DNA from: Octopus vulgaris | Lineage: Eukaryota | Direction of reading: 5' to 3' | Length of the DNA: 64,000 nt | Assembly (NCBI GenBank): GCA_951406725.2 | Contig: OX597833.1 | Location: 15,748,001 to 15,812,000, forward strand | Shown here: positions 3,505-45,256 of the stretch, one piece after another | How the letters are laid out: the number at the start of each line of letters is the position of its first letter | Numbering within the stretch: the first letter of the stretch is position 1 | Translations under genes and position numbers: made by a program | The notes under the pieces: generated by a model | What the model saw: only the letters and a program-made list of their open reading frames with translations | Database searches by the model: none | Told to the model about the DNA's origin: nothing

Positions 3505-3830
3505 TGCAGGAGTGGCTGTGTGGTAAGTAGCTTGCTTGGCACAAGGACAGTAATTCTATGGGTGGGAAGTAAGTTATTTACATCGACTAGTACTTTTTTT
3601 TTGTCTCTGAAAGAATGAAAGGCGGAATTTGAACTCAGAGCGTAAAACTGCCCTCGTGGCAAATTATAATGAAATAAAGTAGCTTGCTTACCGACTACAT
3701 GGTTCCGGGTTCAGTCCCACAGTGTGGCAACTGGGGAAAAGTGTCTTCTGCTATAGCATCGGGCCGACCGAAGCCTTGTGAGTGGATTTGGTAGACGTAA
3801 ACTGAAAGAAGACGTAAACTGAAACATGTG
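3505..3830 (+). mobile_element. SINE A 5' half interrupted by a 139-bp insertion
   Basis: Head split by 3538-3676 with duplication AAGTAGCTTGCTT (3525-3537 and 3677-3689); the insert includes a minus-strand SINE-D fragment. Confidence 0.8.
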
Positions 3831-3848
3831 TGTGTGTGTGCGTATGTT

Positions 3849-3933
<85 letters not shown>

Positions 3934-4804
3934 TGTGTGAAATATTTCTATTTACTATATATTAGCGTACAGAAATCCAGTCACTATCATAGAAGAACGT
4001 TTATGTATTGTATTAAATTTTAGAGATTAGTCAAATCACAACATTGATATAGTTTAACCGATCAGTGGCGTGATATTCATTCTACAAATCCTAATCTAAC
4101 GCGTATTTAACTATCGGCTATTTCTCTTCTATGGACAACGTCGTGTTGAGACAATCAAACCGATTCCAGGGCATAAATTTTTCAACTGTGGGTCCCGTTG
4201 CCAAGCTACCAAGTTTTGGAAAGTAAACAAATCAACTACCAAATTCACACACAATGTATTGGTCATCTAGTGACTATACTCGAAGACACATGTTCAAGGT
4301 GCTCCGCAGTGGGTCTGAACCCGGAACTATCTGGTTGCAAAGTGAGCTTCTTAACTAGACAACCAGGTATAAATATTACATGACATTTGTCTTGTATCTT
4401 ACAACCAATTACTCGAGTCAGCCTTAGATTCTTGGCTCAATATATTCATTCACATGAAAAACACTTGCTAACAAGACTTGTATCAGAGTTTACAACGAAC
4501 GCCTGTATTATCTAATTTAAACATGGAAAATGAAATATATTTTCTATTCTACGTGTTATCAGTTAATCGTAAGAGAAACTAAATTAAGTTTTCAACTAAC
4601 AAATTATAGATTCTCAGAGATTATTATAGTTCTTGCCAAACCCCACAAAAATATCACAAATAATATGCATTGGTGAGCACAACATTTTTAGAAAGAGTCA
4701 GAAATCCAACTGTTACATATAAATTTATGTACTTAAATGTTTATACATATATATATGGAAAGACATACGTAAGGATACATAAAGTCACACACACACACAG
4801 AGGC

Positions 4805-4840
<36 letters not shown>

Positions 4841-4843
<3 letters not shown>

Positions 4844-5332
4844 AGAAAAAAGCAACAAGAATGGTTTAGATGTTCAGTACAATTGTTTCATACGAAGAAC
4901 AGCTTTATTAAAAGCTGCAAATATTTCCTGATTTATATCAGGAAATTATACCTACTTTATTATGGATAAATTCATCGTCTCTGAGTATGAAATATCTCCT
5001 CATATCTCTGGAAATTACACCTACATTATTATGGATGGATTTACCTTTTCTGTGAAGCTAACAAGCTTTTTTAAAACCTTTTATAAAACTGTTCATCATT
5101 TGAGAACTTTGGAAGTCTGCTTACAATCTAAATTTGCTTTTTATAGAACGCTCTTCGATACTTCATGAGTGTAGCCTTACCCCCTAGGATGTTTGGAAAA
5201 CTAATATGTGTTTTGGCTGAGGAATACGGGACACTTGTATTTGCTGCAATATTTGCAGCTTTTAATAAAGCTGTTCTTCGTATGAAACAATTGTACTGAA
5301 CATCTAATCCATTCTTGTTGCTTTTTTCTTGT
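4841..5332 (+). mobile_element. Penelope-like non-autonomous element with ~85-bp inverted repeats
   Basis: 4841-4925 is the near-perfect reverse complement of 5248-5332; left end abuts (TA)n; carries a hammerhead motif. Confidence 0.7.
5209..5302 (+). ncRNA. Type I hammerhead ribozyme candidate with long stem II
   Basis: CUGAGGA (5217-5223), stem II AUACG/CGUAU, GAAA (5284-5287), palindromic CAAUUG, GUA site, wobble-rich stem I. Confidence 0.65.
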
Positions 5333-5454
5333 TTATAATTACCCCACATTATTTTATGGTTAATACCATATAGATTTCTGGTGCATCTAAGTTAAGTACC
5401 GCATTCATGTGAATTCATTGGAACTCACTTGAATTTTAATTGCTTTTACTGAAA

Positions 5455-5533
<79 letters not shown>

Positions 5534-5534
5534 G

Positions 5535-5728
5535 TAGACGTAGGAGTGGGTGGTAGTTTACATGGCAAATTTAATGAATAAAAGTAGTTTCCTTATCAAC
5601 CACGTGGTTTCGGGTTCAGTCCCACTGCGTGTTAGCTTGGGCAAGTGTCTTCTACTATAGCCTCGGGCCGACCAAAGCCTTGTGAATGGATTTGGTAGAA
5701 GCCTGTCGTATATATGTATATATACATA

Positions 5729-5763
<35 letters not shown>

Positions 5764-5974
5764 CTGTGTGTCTGTGTTTGTCTCCCCAACATCGTGTGAC
5801 AACCAATGCTGGTGTGTTTACGTCCTCGTAACCTAGCGGTTCAGCAAATGAGACCGATAGAATAAGTACTATGCTTACAAAGAATAAGTCCTGGGGTAGA
5901 TTCGCTCGACTAAAGGTGGTGCTCCAGCATGGCCACAGTCAAATGACTGAAACAGTTAAAAGAGTAAAAGAGTA
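5535..5974 (+). mobile_element. SINE A with a short insertion in the head
   Basis: Matches other A copies; extra GGCAAATTTAATGAATAA after the A box. Confidence 0.85.
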
Positions 5975-6558
5975 TATAATATGAAAAGGCTTGGATGTAC
6001 GTTTACAATGCATACTTCCCTAACATGGGATCTTCGCCCACTCCCACTGCGTGGAACCTCGGACTGGTTTATCAACCTCGGGCTGAACCACTGATAGGAT
6101 GATAGAAATCACTTATAGGAACTAAAGTTATTCTAGAAAAGTCTATAAAATTCGACCTTTGACTGTCCTCTTACATTTCACTTCCATTAAATATATGTAC
6201 TTCTCAGTTTTTAAGCTTTATTCGTATTCACCTATCGCTCTATATCTCTCCACTATTAGTTTTCTGCTAATTTCTTTCTTTCTCCTCCTTCTCTTTCTAT
6301 AAACGTCCTTGACGTTGTATGTACTAACGTTTTTTTTTTTTTTTTAATTTGCTAGCGTTCCCTTTATCATATACGTAGTCATCACATTCTGTTAAAATGG
6401 CTTATTGATGTGTTTGCTTTTGCTTTCTTTCTTTCCCCCTAATGAGAAAATTGTATTGTTTTACAACATTTTATTCCTTCTGGAATAATAGCAATGTTTT
6501 CTTTGAAACATATGTCAGAAGTAAAAAGATTTAAATATAGCACCTGCATTTAGATCTC

Positions 6559-6651
<93 letters not shown>

Positions 6652-7294
6652 TTATATTGAAAATTGTATATTTATTTCGTCATTATATTTACTGCGGTGA
6701 TATTTTGACCATATCGCCCGAGGAGTTATAGGCGAGCAATGTAGGCTGGTCGTGTTGCTTACGTGCATATATATGTGTCTATACGTTCGTATATGTAAGT
6801 ATTCGTATGTTAAAAGTATATATATATATGTGTATTTATGTTACTATCTGTGTATATTCCACTGATGAGGCAAAGCATTTCTTATGCAGAATCAGAAATG
6901 CGGGATCTGGAATTATCCAGTAATTTTTTTAGCTAGTTTATTTTGTCCCTTTATCTTCTCTCCTACTGTGGTTTTAAAGTGAAGTTTTGTCTGCTATTTC
7001 CAGCGCGGTGGTTTCTCTTAGTTACCCTAAATTATAATTTTAATATTAATAATATTTATACATATATATGGAGGGTGAATAATAAGAGGGTTAAGGAGGT
7101 TACTTGGAAGAGGGTGAGGGGAAGTGTTGGAAGGGTAGGAGAGCGGTTTTCGCAACCTACTTCCCCTTTACCCAATGGTATAATTGAGAATGTTATAGAA
7201 GGGAGCTTCTGCCCCCTTCTTGGAGGGAAGGTGTCACCTCCTCCTTTTACTGTCTAGTATGTAATATTAGTCATCGGTATACAATATTTTTATT

Positions 7295-7600
7295 ATCTCA
7301 ATCCAAGTATAATTACTCACATCTAACTTAAAGTAGAAATATCCAGTTTTCGTAAGTCGAGTTGCTCCAAGAATATTAAAAATAAATAAAGTACGTTATC
7401 AGCATATAATAATTCTTTTGAATCACTATCCAAGGATAAATATTCACATCGGATTTAAGTGTAAAATATAAAGTATTAATAAGGCGATTTGTTCCAGAAT
7501 TATCTAGAATATGCATCGGAAGTTTATCAAGATATAACATTCTCTAATCCCTATCCAAGTAGAAATAATCATATCGGATTTAAATATGAAATATTGAGCG
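7295..7600. repeat. Degenerate ~126-bp tandem repeat, about 2.5 units
   Basis: ATCCAAG...CAYATC...TTAA recurs at 7301, 7428 and 7553. Confidence 0.65.
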
Positions 7601-7665
7601 TACTCTAGCTAATTATATTTGGTATATTCCTCGAATATATATATATTGTTATCTTACCGTTTTAT

Positions 7666-7701
<36 letters not shown>

Positions 7702-7702
<1 letters not shown>

Positions 7703-8139
7703 AGTACAGTTGTCACTAAAGTGACGGAGGGTGTTAGTAAGCGCCAGCATTGCTAGAAATAAATGTCAAAACAACTCTTAGCTACATGAGAGCACTTTTA
7801 TAATGGCTGACAAGGGAGACAGGCTCCCTCCTCACGAAAAGCGAGATGGAGTTATATCAGCGCTGATTTCAGATTTAATCAATCTTCATCAGTGACCAAT
7901 TTCTTCATCGCCAAGGGTTACGGAACCTAAGTAATCCTGTCAGCCTTACTTAGATTCTTTAACACTTGGCGATGAAGTAATGGATCACTGATGAAGATTT
8001 ATTAAGTCTGAAATCATTCATGATATGATTCCATCTCGCTTGTCGTAAGGAGGGAGCCTGCCTCCCTTGTCAACCGTTGGAAATGTGCTCATGATGGAGA
8101 TTACTAACACCCTCCGTCACTTTGGTGACGACTGTACTT
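7702..8139. mobile_element. Foldback element with ~200-bp imperfect arms, each holding a hammerhead motif (Penelope-like)
   Basis: AAGTACAGTTGTCACTAAAGTGACGGAGGGTGTTAGTAA pairs with TTACTAACACCCTCCGTCACTTTGGTGACGACTGTACTT; pairing continues to a short loop near 7935-7945. Confidence 0.8.
7982..8032 (+). ncRNA. Minimal type I hammerhead ribozyme candidate
   Basis: GGAUCA-CUGAUGA-AGAUU/AGUCU-GAAA-UCA(UUCA)UGA-UA-UGAUUCC; all core nucleotides present. Confidence 0.75.
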
Positions 8140-8383
8140 TCAGCTTAATGTCATATATACACGTGTGTGTGTATATGTGTGTAGGTGTCTTTGTGTATGT
8201 GGTTGTCTCCCACTACCGCTTGACAACAGGCATTGGTGTGTTTACGTCCCTGTAGGCTAGCGGTTCAACAAGGAAGAACCGATATAAAAAATAAATTCGC
8301 GTGCTCCAGTATGGCTGTCGTCATACGGCTGAAACAAAACAAAAGGAATAGAAGGATATATACATGTATTTATATGTATTTAT

Positions 8384-8710
8384 GCATGGCTCAGTGGTTA
8401 GAGCGTCGAGCTTACGATCGTGAGGTTGTGAGCTCGAATCCCGGACCGGGCTGCGTGTTGTGTTCTTGAGCAAAGCACTTTATTTCACGTTGCTCCAGTT
8501 CACTCAGCTGTAGAAATGAGTTGCGACGTCACTGGTGCCAAGCTGTATCGACCTTTGTCTTTCCCTTGGATAACACTGGTGGCGTGGAGAGGGGAGGCTG
8601 GTATGCATCGGCGACTGCTGGTCTTCCATAAACAACCATGCCCGGACTTGTGCCTGGGAGGGTAACTTTCTAGGTGCAATCCCATGGTCATTCATGACCG
8701 AAGGGGGTCT
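8384..8710 (+). mobile_element. tRNA-derived CORE-like SINE family C
   Basis: A box TGGCTCAGTGG, B-box-like GCTCGAATCCC, CORE-like TGTGTTCTTGAGCAA..CACTT, tail ATGACCGAAGGGGGTC. Confidence 0.85.
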
Positions 8711-8774
8711 TTTATGCATGTGTTTATAAATATGTATATATGTATGCATACATGTGTGTATTTAAAAAATTAAA

Positions 8775-8960
8775 CACGCCTGGCAAAATGCTAAGCGGCA
8801 TTTCGTCCGTCTTTACGTCCTGATTTCAAATTTCACCGAGGTCGACTTTGGCTTTCGTCAGCTCAGGGTCGATTGAATAAGTACCAGATAGACAGGGGTC
8901 GATCTAATAGAGTTACCCGCTTTCCCCAAAATTGCTGTCCTTGTGACACAACCTGAGATT
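8775..8960 (+). mobile_element. SINE D, older copy with non-Tx1 tail
   Basis: CCGAGGTCGACTTTG...GGGTCGAT..AATAAGTACCAG central domain. Confidence 0.75.
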
Positions 8961-8984
8961 AATCTTCTTTTAGTCTCTCAATAC

Positions 8985-9110
8985 AGCCAACTGTCGGATC
9001 CTCCCTAGATTTTCTAGAGAAATGACACAGGTTTTGGTTGGGTTTGGAAATCCAATGGAATTTCTTCGGATATTGCAAAAGTCTTCGATTGCTGGCACCC
9101 AATATTTTCT
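8985..9110 (+). pseudogene. Decayed LINE reverse transcriptase fragment (CR1/L2 group)
   Basis: Translates as SDIAKVFDCWH, resembling the LDISKAFDRVWH RT motif. Confidence 0.45.
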
Positions 9111-11606
9111 CGTCTCGGAGCATGTATAGTAATTTCCCGCGCGATATGTATTAACTCAATTCCACTTTTTGAATACTGCTCCAGTAAGGCCGCAGCCTAA
9201 TAACTAAAACGAAAGAAAAAAGATAAATGATAAGTGTTTTATTTATTCAAATCCAGCAACACCGAGGTCCTGATAGCGTCTATTGTTGATGATCATAGAA
9301 AAAGGACCTCACTTAGGAGCTGGGATTATTTTTAACTTAATGGTATGGTAAGCATATCGAGAATGGAACCATTTTCTCCCTCTGGAGTCAAAATGGTGAG
9401 TTCGACCTCATAGTTAATAACAACCATAGAAGCATATTTTGAACTGAGTTTGCTTCGTATTCTTCAAGCGGCTGCCACGAGGATGCGTTTCACCAAACTT
9501 AATCGTAAGCAATTTTCTACCCGACAACCCACAATTTCTTATGCTACTCCTTATTGTCAACTTATAAATAACTCAACTATTTTATGTAGTTGAGTGTTAT
9601 TCGCCGTGTATTGGGGCGCAAACCTCAAAAAAGTATAACATCTGATTCAATGTGCACTTAGTATGATAGTTGTAACCGACAACGCCTATCTTCTGCGAAT
9701 GTACCCATAAATCCCAAAATATTCTATTTGATCTTATGTCCAATCAAAACGTTTTGAGAGCTCATGAGCAGCCTGATGAACGTACCACTAAGTCGAACTT
9801 TTCGCTCATTTTCCATAGCCAAAATATTGGCTCCATGTACAAGATGCAATCGTCCTACTTTCTAAAACAAGATTAGCTTTCTTGTCTCTGAAGTTCTTGA
9901 TTACTAAATGTTGTGAATATTATTTAAAAACATTCTAGGATTATTTAGTTTAGAGTTATCGTGAAAATCTACTTATCATTGAACATATAGGATTTTTGGC
10001 GCTTGAAGTTACTGAGCATCTTGCCTTTTGCGCTGAAGTTGGGGCAAATTAATGGGTGGATTTCTTCCTGAATAATGGCCACATCTTCAGATGTCATTCT
10101 ACTGACAAACAAAACTATTTCGAAAATAAGCTGTTACTTCTATCGGAAAAACAACTTAACTAGACAATTTTGATGAGTGTCTAGTATTTATTGAATACTA
10201 CATATTGTAATATAAGTTCTTCCGTAGAATATCCAGTTTTATCATTTCTTCGTCTCAATTTATTTTCAGTGAGAGGCTATGGGAAATCTGTGTTTCTTTC
10301 ATCATTAAACCTCTGTAATAATTACATCTAACACACGATAGAGAGAATGAACATTAAGCATACAGCTGTAACATTTCGATTAACTTTGGCAACAGTTGCA
10401 GTGAAACACTAACAGTTTCTGGATAGTTTTATTCTTCCCCTACGAATAGCAGATTCGTAATACATTAGATAGTTATCATTAATTTGGTTACAGATAACAG
10501 AGATAACAATAGTTATCATTAATTTGGTTACAGATAACTGAGAGATAATAATCAATGTGCTGCAGTTTTCTAGGAGATTGTCGCATCTGTGTAGACAGAC
10601 GATAATTTAACTATAAACAATATGGCGTTCAAATCGTCTGCCTATAGTTGGTCATAATGTGATATTGTAAAGCAAATCGATCGTCTGGTGATTTGTTGTT
10701 GCAAAAATCAGAATCTGCCATAAGTAATAAATAAAAAGAACTAAATATAAGACTTATGTTTATCATTTCTCTTAAGCATATCATGAGTGACATGTTGTGA
10801 TATTTTAATAAGAATTTATCATCATCATTTTATCCAGTCAGTAGTAAACATGACATAATTTGATAAGAGTATTTCCTCTCTAGACACACTACAATTGTAA
10901 TTCAGTTTTTAAACAGATCGGACATCGTGACAAAAAAAGAAGAGAAAACTACATTAATAGAAATACATACAACTATATACAAAAACGTTTGGACGTGTGT
11001 GTGTATGTGTACAATATATGCGCAGCGTGTGTCTGTTCTAGGGAAGATTTTCTTTTAGACTTATGGAGTTGAAAACACGATTGAGTTCTAATGTTTTTTT
11101 CTTTTTTGTTTATATTAACAAATTCTCATTTCGATGAATCTTACGCTTATATTTCGTTTGGAACGATAAGGTTATGAAATTTCCTCTTTACAAAAGTTTG
11201 CTGTCTATCTCACCTAATCTTCTGGGCGAGACGATGCTTTCCCATCTCTGCTCCTCCTTTCGTATAAATTTCCCCACCATATCTTGAGAGTGACAGCTTT
11301 GGTGTTCTATGAGATTACATTTAATGTTGTAAAGTATATATGTTGTGTGCTTATTTTACACTTTAAATCTAGCGCATTGTCTTCTATTTATAATTAAAGA
11401 GATAAAATGCAGTATTATTTTCCATAATATTTTACGAAGCGGCTTTTTGTACGGTAGGTGACATAGTACGTTATAAATTCTTCTTATATTAAGGGGTGGG
11501 GGAGAAAGCGTTGTACTCGTCTAACTAATATATATACCTATCCTACTATGTATATACACCACACACATGCACACACACACACGTATAGACACTGACATGC
11601 GCACAC

Positions 11607-11677
<71 letters not shown>

Positions 11678-11686
11678 CAGCCTTTA

Positions 11687-12040
11687 GTGAAGGCGCGTGG
11701 CTCAGTGGTTAGAGCGTCGAGCTTACGATCGTGAGGTTGTGAGCTCGAATCCCGGACCGGGCTGCGTGTTGTGTTCTTGAGCAAGACACTTTATCTCACG
11801 TTGCTCCAGTTCACTCAGCTGTAGAAATGAGTTGCGACGTCACTGGTGCCAAGCTGTATCGGCCCTTGCCTTTCCCTTGGACAACATCGGTGACGTGGAG
11901 AGGGGAGGCCGGTATGCATGGGCGACTGCTGGTCTTACATAAAAAAAAAAAAAAAAAAACCCAACCTTGCCCAGACTTGTGCCTCAGAGGGTAACTCTCT
12001 AGGTGCAAACCCATGGTCAGTGTCTGACCGAAGGGGGTCA
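11687..12040 (+). mobile_element. SINE C, full length
   Basis: Close match to 8384-8710; ATACAATCA near both ends. Confidence 0.9.
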
Positions 12041-12098
12041 CCATATACAATCAAAGCAATTGTACTAAAAACTAATCCATTCTTGTTGCTTCTTTCTC

Positions 12099-12132
<34 letters not shown>

Positions 12133-12236
12133 CGAGTTGCATGTGATTCATGTCCTAAAGCGAGAGTGTTATACTCGCCTAGCTAATGTAACGATATTCC
12201 CACGTACACACACACACACAAATATATATATATGCT

Positions 12237-12563
12237 GAGACCCCTTTCGGCCATGACTGACCATAGGATTGCACCTAGAAAGTTACCCTCCGAGGCACAA
12301 GTACGGGCAAGGTTGTTAATGGAAGACCAGCAGTCGTCCATGCAAACCGGCCTCCCCTCTCCACAACACTGATGTTTTCAAAGGGAAAGGCAAAGGGGCC
12401 AATACAGCTTGGCACCAGTGACGTCGCAACTGATTTCTACAGCTAAGTCAACTGGAGCATTGTGGAATGGAGTGTCTTGCTCAAGAACACAACACGCAGT
12501 CCGGTTTGGGATTCGCGCTCACAACCTCACGATCGTAAGCTCGACGCTCTAGCCAGTGAGCCA
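12237..12563 (-). mobile_element. SINE C, inverted relative to its neighbour
   Basis: Reverse complement of the 11687-12040 family. Confidence 0.9.
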
Positions 12564-12819
12564 ATCAGAAGCATAACAGGAAGAATACAACAGACGGAAA
12601 CCAACAAAACACAACATGCGGGGAAAAAGACGATAGCAGGACAAACGGCAAACATGACAGAAACAAGATACACGGATCGTTCGCAGCCGATTCCCTTAAA
12701 GTCTTTGTAGTTTCGCCCATCCACCCTTACATATAATGCCATTGACAAAAACTAGGCAAACATTACGGGTGATTAACATGAAACCTCTCACACATTGGCA
12801 TTAGATTTTCTCAACCTGA

Positions 12820-12957
12820 GCTTTGACACTTTCATCCTTTCGGTGTCGATAAATAAAGTACCAGTTTCTCACTGGGGTCGATGTAATCAACTTAATCCCT
12901 TTGTCTGTCCTTGTTTGTCCCCTCTATGTTTAGTCCCTTGTGGGCAATAAAGAAATA
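12820..12957 (+). mobile_element. 5'-truncated SINE D with Tx1-like tail
   Basis: Central domain plus TTGTCCCCTCTATGTTTAGTCCCTTGTGGGCAATAAAGAAA. Confidence 0.8.
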
Positions 12958-13335
12958 TATATCGCATAACATACATATATTATTTGATGAATGTACGTAA
13001 ACATACACTCATCGTTTAAACTGAATGAATGTTTATTAAAATGAATAAACATACATTAATTTTCGTTGATGAATATGCATCAAATAAAATTATAAATGGT
13101 GATGGAATGGGAACAACTCATTATACTTGCAATATAACGTGCACTTAATGTCTCATTAATGTGTGTTCAATACATTCTTTGTTTGTTGCAACTAGATTGT
13201 GCTGAGAATGAATTTGGTTAAATAGCAAAAAAAAAAAAAAAAATGAAACAGATCTGGGGAAATTATTGTCATATTTTTTGCTAGCTACTCACAGATGTAT
13301 AGAAATTATGAGTGGCCTTAGGGACGTGCCGTTCC

Positions 13336-13773
13336 CGATATTTTCGGTTTGAACGGCAGTTTTTTAACATAATTTCTAGTTAACTAAACACTTTTAAACT
13401 TCGTATACTGGTAGAATGTGTTTATAAAACATATTTTTCTCTTGGCTTTATTGAGAAAATTCTATAGTTTGTAAAGTATTTGTTGTTTTTTTCTTCAATT
13501 TCTGCAATTTCAACCAATCAATGACGTCTATTGAGGTGAAAACATTCTTGCCGTATGGATATGCCCCTCGTTTAAGAAACAGATAGGGTTTATTTACATT
13601 TCTGAAGAAAAAAAGATACCCTTACCACCACCCCTAACTCTAACCCAAACCTTAACCAACCCTAACCTTAAAACAGATTTGAAATGCAATAGATCGATAC
13701 TGGGGTCATAATTACGTGTGACAATTTCATATGACACCGCTAGAAAAAACTGCCGTTCAAACCGAAAATATCC
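13336..13773. mobile_element. Non-autonomous DNA transposon (MITE) with ~30-bp TIRs
   Basis: GATATTTTCGGTTTGAACGGCAGTTTTTT and its perfect reverse complement; internal CCCTAA-like repeats. Confidence 0.85.
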
Positions 13774-14202
13774 TGGAACACATCTGAGGAAATTATAGTC
13801 ATATCTTTTGCTAGCTGCTCACAGCTTTATAGAAATGTGTTCCATCACAAATGTAAATAAACCCAATCTGTTTCTTAAACGAGGGACATATTCATACGGC
13901 ACAGAATGTTTTTACCTCAAAAGACGTCATTGATTGGTTGAAATTGAATTCGTAATCTACTAGCACTCGTTTATTTTTGTACTTGGCCTTATGAATGCTA
14001 CCAGCTTCCAAATATTTTTTATATTATTTCAATTCTCGCGAAATCACCGCTATCTCACTTCATTATCTATAAGTAGGAGTGGCAGCACCAATGTCAGAAC
14101 AAACTTCGAATGCAGCAAAATTCTGTTATATCTGATACACAGGACGCGTGAACATCGACTGGAAATCCTTGATTAGAATTTAATGTTACAGAAATTTAAT
14201 AA

Positions 14203-14415
14203 AGGCAGCGTCCTGGCTGAATAGTTATTTTATCGGTTAAAATGCTTATCGGAATTTCATCCGATTTTTGCGCTTGAGTTCAAATCCCGCCGATATCAAG
14301 TTTGCCTTTAATCATTTCGAGATCGATAAAATAAGTACAACTTGAGCAGTGGGGACAATGTAGTCGATTATCCCTCTCACGTAAAACTGCTGACCTTATT
14401 CCAAAATTTAAAACA
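14203..14415 (+). mobile_element. Old SINE D copy
   Basis: AAGGCAGCG head, GAGTTCAAATCCCGCC B box, diverged central domain. Confidence 0.7.
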
Positions 14416-14778
14416 TTTGTCAGTCTCTCAACTCATGATCGTAAATCTTGATTTTCTATGAAGTTGCGAACTCTCTCCAGGCAATTGTATCACCAACATT
14501 ATATACTCTTTCTACTATTTCATGATGAAATGGGTACAGATTCTTCAACGTCTCTCGCTGAAGCGTAATCGAAATGAAGTAAATGTAAAACTGCATATTC
14601 TACGGATAAATTTTTATAACTAGAAATATGCAGCATTCAACTACATAACAGCATTTAACTAAATACCAGGTACAAGTGAAAATTATCCAGTTAACTGCAG
14701 CTTGTCTGACAGAAGTAGCATCGCGTTTCCTCTAATTGTGGCAGAGACCAAATTTGAAGCAGTTCCTTAAGCAAAGAG

Positions 14779-15420
14779 TAGGTACAACTGTGGGTACGTC
14801 GTAAGAAGTTTCCTTTTTCGGATAACCTGAACGAGTCTAGAAAATGTGAAACATGTGAATTTTTGTGTGTTTTAAAAAAGGAAAAAAAGAATTCTGAACA
14901 TTGTGTTGTTTAAATAAGAGGTTTATTGCCTCATTGTGTTTTGGGGAAAAAGGGAAAAAACATTGTTTTAGAGAAGTGAATGTCAGCGGGCGCTTTTTGT
15001 CTTCTCCCATCATCATCATTTTTGTATCACCATCATTCATACCATTAATGTCCATGTCCAGCCCGCAAAGCTTCTTTCTGTGTGATGCCCTTGTGGCAAA
15101 TTATATGAAATAAAGAAGTTTCCTTCTTAACCACATAGTTTCTGGTTTATTCCTACACTTTGGCACCTTCGGTAAGTGCTTTAAACTATAGCCCCGGGTC
15201 GACTTGTTTCTTGCGGGTGGATTTAGTAGAAGAAACTGAAGAAACCCGTGATTGCCACCCACAACTGTTTGACTACCGGTGTCGGTCTGTTTACACGCAA
15301 TAACTCAGCAGTGCAACAACAGAAGTGGAATAAAGAGCATAAGATTTTAATAAAACCTAATAACAAAACGGTTCCCTATCATGGCTGCAGTCCAAAAAAT
15401 GTCAAAAACTGAAAAGATAA
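14779..15420 (+). mobile_element. Old SINE A interrupted by a 297-bp LINE-like 3' end (14816-15112)
   Basis: Duplication AAGAAGTTTCCTT at 14803-14815 and 15113-15125; diverged A head before, A body after. Confidence 0.75.
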
Positions 15421-15845: not shown

Positions 15846-16576
15846 AAGGCAGCGAGCTGGCAGAAACGTTAGCACGCTGGGCGAAATGCTTAGCGCTATT
15901 TCGTCTGCCGCTACGTTCTGAGTTCAAATTCCGCCGAGGTCGACTTTGCCTTTCATCATTTCGAGGTCGAATAAATAAGTACCAGTTACGCACAGGGGTC
16001 GATGTAATCGACTTAATCCGTTTGTCTGCCCTTGTTTGTCCTCTCTGTGTTTAGCTCCTTGTGGGTAGTAAAGAAATAAGTATTTCGTCTGCTGTTACGT
16101 TCTGAGTTCAAATTCCGCCGAGGTCGACTTTGCCTTTCATCCTTTCGGGGCCGATAAATTAAGTACGAGTTATGCACTGGGGTCGATATAATCGACTTAA
16201 TCCATTTGTCTGTCCTTGTTTGTCCTCTCTGTGTTTAGCTCCTTGTGGGTAGTAAAGAAATAGGTACTTCGTCTGCCGTTACGTTCTGAGTTCAAATTCC
16301 GCCCAGGTCGACTTTGCGTTTTATCTTTTCGGGTCGATTAAATAAGTACCAGTTATGCACTGGGGTCGATATAATCGACTTAATCCGTTTGTCTGTCCTT
16401 GTTCTGAGTTCAAATTCCGCCGAGGTCGACTTCGCCTTTCATCCTTTCGGGGCCGATAAATTAAGTACCAGTTACGCACTGGGGTCGATGTAATCGACTT
16501 AATCCCTTTGTGTGTCATTGTTTGTTTGTTTGTCCCCTCTGTGTTTATCCCCTTGTGGGCAATAAATAAATAAAAA
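15846..16576 (+). mobile_element. SINE D tandem array (one head, four body units)
   Basis: Units restart at GTATTTCGTCTG after the tail AAAGAAATA; flanks AGGTACAGCTTT / AGATACAGCTTT. Confidence 0.9.
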
Positions 16577-37636: not shown

Positions 37637-38047
37637 TATTTCTTTATTGCTCACAAGGGGCTAAACATAAAGGGGACAAACAAGGACATGCAAAGGGATT
37701 AAGTCGATTAGATCGACCCCAGTGCGTAACTGGTACTTATTTAATCGACCCCGAAAGGACGAAAGCAAAGTTGACCTCGGCGGAATTTGAACTCAGAAAG
37801 TAGCGGCAGACGAAATACCTATTTCTTTACTCCTCACAAGGAGCTAAACACAGAGAGGACAAACAAGGACAGACAAACGGATTAATTCGATTATATCGAC
37901 CCCAGTGCGTAACTGGTACTTAATTTATCGGCCCCGAAAGAATGAATGGCAAAGTCGACCTCGGCGGAATTTGAACTCAGAACGTAAAGACAGTCGAAAT
38001 ACCGCTAAGCATTTCGCCCGGCATGCTAACGTTTCTGCCAGTTTGCA
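37637..38047 (-). mobile_element. SINE D dimer with Tx1-like tails
   Basis: Junction AAAGAAATAG-GTATTTCGTC on the minus strand; TSD CGT(G/T)CTGCACTTCT. Confidence 0.88.
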
Positions 38048-41307: not shown

Positions 41308-42592
<1,285 letters not shown>

Positions 42593-44835: not shown

Positions 44836-45256
44836 AAAAGGCGGCGAGCTGGCAGAAACGTTAGCACGCCGGGCGAAAAGCTTAGCGGTATTTCGTCTGC
44901 CGCTACGTTCTGAGTTCAAATTCCGCCGAGGTCGACTTTGCCTTTCATCCTTTCGGGGTCGATTAAATTAAGTACCAGTATTGCACTGGGGTAGATATAA
45001 TCGACTTAATCCGTTTGTCCGTCCTTGTTTGTCCACTCTGTGTTTAGCCCCTTGTGGGTAGTAAAGAAATAGGTATTTCGTCTGCCGCTACGTTCTGAGT
45101 TCAAATTCCGCCGAGGTCGACTTTGCCTTTCATCCTTTCGGGGTCGATTAAATTGAGTACCAGTTATGCACTGGTGTCGATATAATCGACTTAATCCCTT
45201 TGTCCGTCCTTGTTTGTCCACTCTGTGTTTAGCCCCTTGTGGGTAGTAAAGAAATA
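44836..45256 (+). mobile_element. SINE D dimer with Tx1-like tails
   Basis: 16-bp TSD GGTATTCTTCATACAA (44820-44835 and 45257-45272). Confidence 0.92.

Follow-up and report, generated by a model that had tools for sequence, protein, structure and literature searches.

Several long interspersed elements (LINEs) of the Tx1 group insert at fixed positions within other mobile elements. In the part of PMC4494074 consulted here, Xenopus Tx1L is placed in Tx1D, crocodilian Tx1-Mar in Mariner-N4_AMi, Tx1-8_Crp and Tx1-4_AMi in long terminal repeat (LTR) elements and Tx1-9_AMi in Harbinger; the targets named there are DNA transposons, LTR elements, U2 and microsatellites, with no short interspersed element (SINE) among them. 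Non-autonomous LINEs with only the first open reading frame (ORF1) are also described, namely HAL1 (L1), HeT-A (Jockey) and Ag-Sponge (CR1), in the consulted sections of PMC5786205 and PMC5753468. For Octopus vulgaris, the consulted text of PMC13282606 reports 13 recently active L1-Tx1 families and does not mention their targets. Here we analyse a window of 64,000 nucleotides (nt) of the O. vulgaris genome (G000:C20:15748001-15812000; genome searched, 2.8 Gb), in which three copies of a transfer RNA (tRNA)-like SINE are interrupted by retroelement 3' ends. The reading that we regard as highly probable is that a young L1/Tx1-type LINE and several subfamilies of ORF1-only elements lacking a reverse transcriptase (RT) share one base of the SINE head, the second open reading frame (ORF2) product of the LINE likely cutting the target and copying the RNAs of both. 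Tx1 elements that target transposons have been described, as have ORF1-only LINEs; the literature searched contained no report of the two together with a SINE promoter as target. That search returned no SINE-targeting and no ORF1-only Tx1 element, and Repbase, Dfam, subscription papers and supplements, which lay outside it, may hold them.

All three interrupted SINE copies in the window are broken at GTGGT^AAGWAG, as a sequence-only reading of this DNA had held, and the target-site duplications are as it described them, exact over 13 bp at loci 1 and 3 and degraded at locus 2. At locus 1 the SINE head up to the insertion point (3506..3524, + strand) contains an A-box-like TGGCTGTGTGG at 3513-3523 and is followed by the left 13-bp duplication (3525..3537, +), whose final 2 nt fit the inserted SINE piece too. 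The same duplication, AAGTAGCTTGCTT, recurs at 3677-3689 at the start of the SINE body (3677..3810, +), which carries a B-box-like GGTTCAGTCCC; by their consensus these two motifs are the presumed boxes of an RNA polymerase III (Pol III) promoter. Insert 1 is chimeric. Its first part (3538 to about 3646, - strand) is a fragment, in antisense, from another and older family of SINEs, and the element itself contributes only a 29-nt 3' tip (3648..3676, +) with a loop of the ORF1-only type (GCC-CTCGT-GGC). Short shared letters are present at both junctions, and no source locus was found among the 40 scored of 175 candidates; the chimera may have arisen by template switching, as we infer, or by 5' transduction. 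At locus 2 a decayed SINE head with a partly deleted left duplication (5540..5562, +) precedes a 3' tip of 19 nt (5563..5581, +), too short for subfamily assignment, and then the right duplication and SINE body (5582..5700, +; the SINE extends to about 5975); a private AGTTT variant is common to the left and right copies. At locus 3 a decayed head leads into the left duplication (14803..14815, +), which matches the right one (15113-15125) exactly as AAGAAGTTTCCTT. Between them lies the 3' end of an ORF1-only element (14816..15112, +), comprising the final three ORF1 codons and stop (14819-14830), the 3' untranslated region (UTR) and the tip, and an old-class SINE body follows (15113..15260, +, including the duplication). 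Since the host bodies of the three loci are 15-31% divergent and their flanks align at background scores, the loci are not duplicates of one insertion. Three tail-like motifs are present in the window, always at the SINE target, and none on either strand of 400 kb of unselected DNA. Interrupted copies make up 3 of 16 SINEs in the window and 0 of 76 assessable copies (87 SINE hits) in the unselected DNA (Fisher p 0.004), an enrichment from which no hot spot is deduced, the window having been selected for these insertions. The share of SINE copies hit is small, as the 0/76 indicates, and the data do not show that the insertions strongly alter SINE numbers.

The same site specificity is seen genome-wide. 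The exact tail TGCC-N5-GGCAAATTATATGAAATA runs straight into AAGWAG in 142 of 156 occurrences (control pattern, 0), so that most tails do not have unrelated 3' flanks; this preference exceeds the Tx1 criterion of >20% of flanks given in the consulted part of PMC4494074. A looser pattern finds 889 tails of the ORF1-only type, some of which, among those with a TTTAT loop, may come from unseen two-ORF variants; AAGWAG directly follows 89 of the first 100 listed, and a further 6 have it with at most one change (hand count). A search with 14816-15112 gave 1549 candidates, of which the best 40 were scored and 30 loci (given here by L numbers) were fetched. The query is 81-94% identical to 29 other fetched copies, and most copies stop at the same base before AAGWAG. 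Upstream of the query the copies extend by <20 to >1400 nt, or to full length, and inserts across loci span 19 nt to 5.45 kb. Flanking DNA is unrelated from locus to locus, and the points of 5' truncation differ. Independent 5' truncation, as first proposed for the window inserts, is supported across the genome, but insert 1 is no 139-nt truncation, only its 29-nt tail belonging to the element. Among 90 distinct 3' ends in the fetched loci, 86 lie at the motif, 67 of them followed by a recognisable SINE body and 19 mostly by another element; 1 further end is a doubled tail and 3 are off target. As a separate observation, contig C20 (2.6% of the genome) holds 7 of the 40 scored matches to the locus-3 subfamily, two of which are duplicates of one locus.

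Extension of 14816-15112 led to a full-length element of about 2 kb, an outcome that divides the earlier attribution of the inserts to a LINE: a sequence-specific L1/Tx1-type LINE is supported, but the source of the longest window insert is a family with ORF1 only and no RT. Full-length copies of this kind measure about 2.0-2.5 kb. Bounded by duplications, they separate the SINE head from its body and consist of a 5' UTR of about 540 nt, a single ORF and some 300 nt of 3' UTR, with no ORF2 and no poly(A); no RT coding sequence was found in those extended from the fetched loci. One copy has an intact ORF of 397 amino acids (aa), in which a Pfam scan found no domain, and a different subfamily gave a weak Pfam zf-CCHC match. 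The lone ORF is 65% identical to an Octopus sinensis protein. At the protein level 150 relatives were listed, with identities as low as 65%; the 20 that were fetched are all ORF1-only elements of several subfamilies at the same SINE site. In 55 pairs of 11 intact copies the ratio of non-synonymous to synonymous substitution rates (dN/dS) has a median of 0.22 (range 0.14-0.29) over the N-terminal half, up to the CCHC knuckle, and is 0.45 beyond it, which shows purifying selection on the lone ORF1. The youngest subfamily has copies 97.5-98.7% identical over 2.2 kb. The predicted structure, confident only in part (mean per-residue model confidence (pLDDT) 50), shows two alpha/beta domains with a pLDDT of about 60-84 over residues 20-160, and its best structural matches are proteins with tandem RNA recognition motifs (RRMs; expect value (E) 4e-5 to 1e-3, low TM-scores). 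The protein is modelled as RRM-like folds with a CCHC knuckle. In a quick tree of 31 rows the ORF1-only proteins and the O. sinensis protein form one clade on a long stem. In the subfamilies (L097-L116, L067-L096) the 5' UTRs begin with unrelated sequence and C-terminal halves have been exchanged, which suggests promoter replacement and recombination. Sequencing runs were uninformative on expression either way: no RNA record was listed as a holder, and for one ORF1-only copy 30/30 bins were covered by contigs from three runs that carry the labels of other organisms and 8/30 by a run guessed to be RNA.

A candidate helper was found at locus L101, where a two-ORF LINE is flanked by two ORF1-only units. 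For its endonuclease 151 matches were listed, some 75 of which are at least 95% identical. Full copies of 5.45 kb encode an ORF1 of 466 aa (zf-CCHC) and an ORF2 of 1133 aa with an apurinic/apyrimidinic endonuclease (APE), RT and zf-RVT; Pfam finds only PF03372, PF00078 and PF13966 in ORF2, and no RNase H. The closest solved structure to ORF2 is human L1 ORF2p (E 1e-66, residues 6-870), followed by R2 (E 2e-19), no other clades being among the structure-library matches. By sequence, the helper is classed as an L1/Tx1-group LINE. The zf-CCHC of its ORF1 and the RRM-like fold of the ORF1-only protein correspond to the Type I ORF1 given for Tx1 in the consulted part of PMC5203782, an RRM/CCHC ORF1 being consistent with Tx1. 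The rows of a quick RT tree are unnamed relatives and the searches returned no named Tx1 sequence, so Tx1 here denotes a type and not a clade placement; in this tree the SINE-targeting copies form one clade among sister families. The helper RT is 64% identical to an Argonauta hians protein. All 16 young helper loci fetched are at the SINE site, with the SINE head directly upstream in 14, and 12 copies compared are 98.5-99.8% identical. Four more related loci are older or more distant: L134 lies in the SINE, L133 is a fragment, and L135 and L136 have other flanks. The helper ORF1 is homologous to the lone ORF1, at 27% identity over 196 aa (27-28% across comparisons).

Measured against HAL1, HeT-A and Ag-Sponge, as the consulted sections describe them, the octopus ORF1-only elements are alike in having a single ORF1-like protein, no ORF2 and a need for an autonomous partner, which is deduced here from the shared site, tip and trains of insertions. 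They differ in their L1/Tx1-type ORF1 with RRM-like and CCHC parts, in SINE-site specificity, in lacking a poly(A) tail and in their distance from the partner: given 27% ORF1 identity, some 45 nt of shared sequence and their own long stem, they are not a recent internal deletion of the helper. Their exact tails also outnumber those of the young helper by about 8:1 (889 to 115, the patterns being unequally strict). The octopus system resembles transposon-targeting Tx1 elements in its APE-RT LINE, in the fixed position of insertion within a mobile element of many copies, in tandem arrangement and in non-autonomous followers with the same target (SINEU in the consulted part of that work). Unlike theirs, its target is a tRNA-like SINE, hit between predicted promoter boxes at a specificity of about 90%, its followers are protein-coding ORF1-only elements, and its preference shifts with SINE subfamily age.

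We propose the following scheme for insertion. The APE endonuclease would nick the bottom strand at CTT^AC, directly past the A box, to judge from the junction; this would be a T^A step, like that of the L1 endonuclease. Target-primed reverse transcription would begin on RNA recognised via a 3' hairpin. Both kinds of element end in the 3' tip TGCC-N5-GGCA with an A-rich spacer behind it. Subfamilies retain the 4-bp stem TGCC/GGCA but differ in the 5-nt loop, and folding reproduced the drawn hairpin in 4 of 5 tails. The 5' leader of the element would pair with the top strand, completing the 5' junction. In full-length copies positions 9-14 of this junction often do not match the 3' copy, while unlinked loci of a single subfamily repeat one leader variant (L097/L101, L100/L102, L098/L108, also L110, L114 and L131); the short target-like leader therefore belongs to the element. 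Trains would form because the target duplication rebuilds the site and lets later copies stack. One SINE (L217-L219, G000:C1:223689300-223708760) holds seven ORF1-only units and one LINE in about 19 kb, and L220 is a four-unit train within a single SINE copy. The ORF1-only elements would provide their own RNA-binding protein and take ORF2 in trans, and the SINE copy that is hit would be silenced by the separation of its A and B boxes. Both kinds of element would be transcribed from Pol II promoters of their own. A promoter supplied by the SINE A box through Pol III read-through was ruled out by early T runs (T4 at 26-164 nt from the 5' junction in 6/6 copies checked) and by the lack of a B box.

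Several points weigh against this account. The evidence is of sequence, and the dependence on the helper rests on shared site, tip and timing. AAGWAG does not follow 14 of the 156 exact tails, and the fetched loci are the best-scoring matches rather than a random draw. The tail at window locus 3 folded differently from the drawn hairpin. Tandem units in trains differ by 0.1-0.8% and may reflect DNA duplication instead of serial insertion. The ORF1-only elements share with the helper the 3' tip of about 45 nt only and no common 5' UTR, and their stem was not resolved as sister to the helper ORF1, because of which another, unseen helper may exist.

Such a helper would be a different, unsampled ORF2, or extinct earlier ones, moving the ORF1-only elements with the same targeting. 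The low ORF1 identity and the long separate stem would fit this, as would the old subfamily of locus 3, which lies mostly in the oldest SINE class (17/21 listed rows), where none of the 79 listed young LINE tails is found. However, the young ORF1-only copies share site, SINE class and trains with the young LINE, and an older member of the helper lineage (L134) is also in this SINE; we hold the idea to be unlikely. A single old insertion might instead have been amplified within a composite SINE or by segmental duplication, and L005, L011 and L017, which share long flanks, are indeed duplicates of one locus, while some tandem units are >99% identical. Yet 5' breakpoints, host SINE classes and locus-specific duplications differ, the inserts vary as widely in size as stated above and many subfamilies are involved, so that amplification is already refuted as a general account and retains a negligible probability.

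Finally, the conserved true target could be a tRNA gene, the SINE copies being mere look-alike decoys. The SINE head aligns best with tRNA-Lys(TTT) among the seven isotypes sampled, and in one of the 20 loci of a sister LINE family the element immediately precedes a U2 gene, which indicates that targeting of small-RNA genes exists in the lineage. But 30 loci fetched around 31 of 34 tRNA matches, with 41 distinct tRNA calls of seven isotypes, showed neither the target motif (one weak 3-mismatch flag) nor a tail within their 10-kb surroundings, the 67/67 ends with a recognisable body continue into the SINE, and the preference tracks SINE subfamilies. We judge this quite improbable. Of the two targets first suggested, the SINE or its source tRNA gene, the former stands, hit between the predicted A and B boxes, and the sampled tRNA genes, of these seven isotypes, are not hit. 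The preferred reading remains that of a helper LINE and ORF1-only followers directed to one base of the SINE.

The host SINE, when uninterrupted, falls into three classes with median pairwise divergence of 23.9% (n=21), 10.2% (n=58) and 5.5% (n=15). Box-like motifs are present; ARAGORN calls no tRNA anywhere in the window, nor does Rfam at an intact SINE copy that was scanned. An octopus OK (tRNA-Lys) SINE was reportedly described by Ohshima and Okada in 1994 and is a possible lead for the host. By hand count, 100 listed of 115 tails of the young-LINE type lie in the youngest class in 62 cases, the middle in 34, the oldest in 1 (an ORF1-only copy) and elsewhere in 3, against a background of 5, 28 and 7 SINE heads in the three classes, youngest first (n=40). 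The young LINE thus prefers the youngest over the middle class (62/96 vs 5/33, Fisher p 7e-7), with the reservations that this background is small, that 30 of its 40 loci were picked around tRNA genes, that older copies have decayed sites and that tandem neighbours inflate the youngest class. A tentative and rather doubtful extension is that LINE target recognition and 5' leader tracked the SINE through three successive subfamilies, hitting and splitting the youngest, probably active copies first, with an ancient ORF1-only lineage riding the LINE and now outnumbering it.

Sister LINEs have other targets. The family at 41733..42180 (- strand; L177-L196) inserts in (ATCT)n in the manner of Kibi and Koshi, and its ORF2 is 49-66% identical to that of the helper over longer matches. 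The sequence-only reading had likened the longest insert tail to the LINE tail at 41733-41790; the resemblance is weak (31 nt, E 0.009) and concerns a different family with a different target. As a partner tail it was ruled out, being present in 16/20 loci and each time followed by (ATCT) microsatellite-like sequence. A second sister family (L213:1968-2161, L211, L200-L216) ends before a complete U2 small nuclear RNA gene in 1/20 loci and before a U2 5' stub in 1/20, and at most other loci it precedes a repeat starting ATCG and unnamed by Rfam. Such targets recall Keno (U2) and Kibi and Koshi (microsatellites) of PMC4494074, in the part consulted, with the difference that here they belong to sisters and not to the SINE-targeting family. 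Dada DNA transposons likewise insert at or near a Pol III A box of tRNA-type sequence, but they are DNA transposons that enter real tRNA genes within the A box, as far as the consulted text of PMC8869645 goes. Two other SINEs carry related tails. A second SINE family (window 15850-16575, 37660-38046 and 44887-45256; many of L137-L170) has a tail like the helper 3' UTR (TTTGTCTGTCCTTGTTTGTCCCC, then a GCCC-CTTGT-GGG hairpin), with GGTAT after 14 of 45 ends, often within its own copy, giving tandem arrays of about 185 bp; it is likely mobilised by a Tx1-type relative with weaker site preference. A third, older SINE (window 14392 and 62682; L137-L175) ends in GGC-CTTGT-GCC, the ORF1-only hairpin with its stem reversed, possibly a compensatory change. 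L141:1512-6331 holds a cluster of tRNA-Cys genes and variants.

The elements described here likely live as parasites of a parasite. With them the targets known for site-specific LINEs come to include a SINE promoter, and an RT-less, protein-coding follower is seen to be maintained by selection over many subfamilies. Target, helper and follower are all represented by dated subfamilies in one genome, which makes endonuclease specificity against a changing target directly testable, and intact young copies make cleavage and trans-mobilisation assays feasible. Octopus repeat annotation can also be corrected, since RT-less 2-kb elements easily go unclassified. If the three-level chase is true, the LINE would be a natural brake on the SINE and could serve as a safe-harbour integrase of single-nucleotide precision, for which landing sites would number in the hundreds of thousands.

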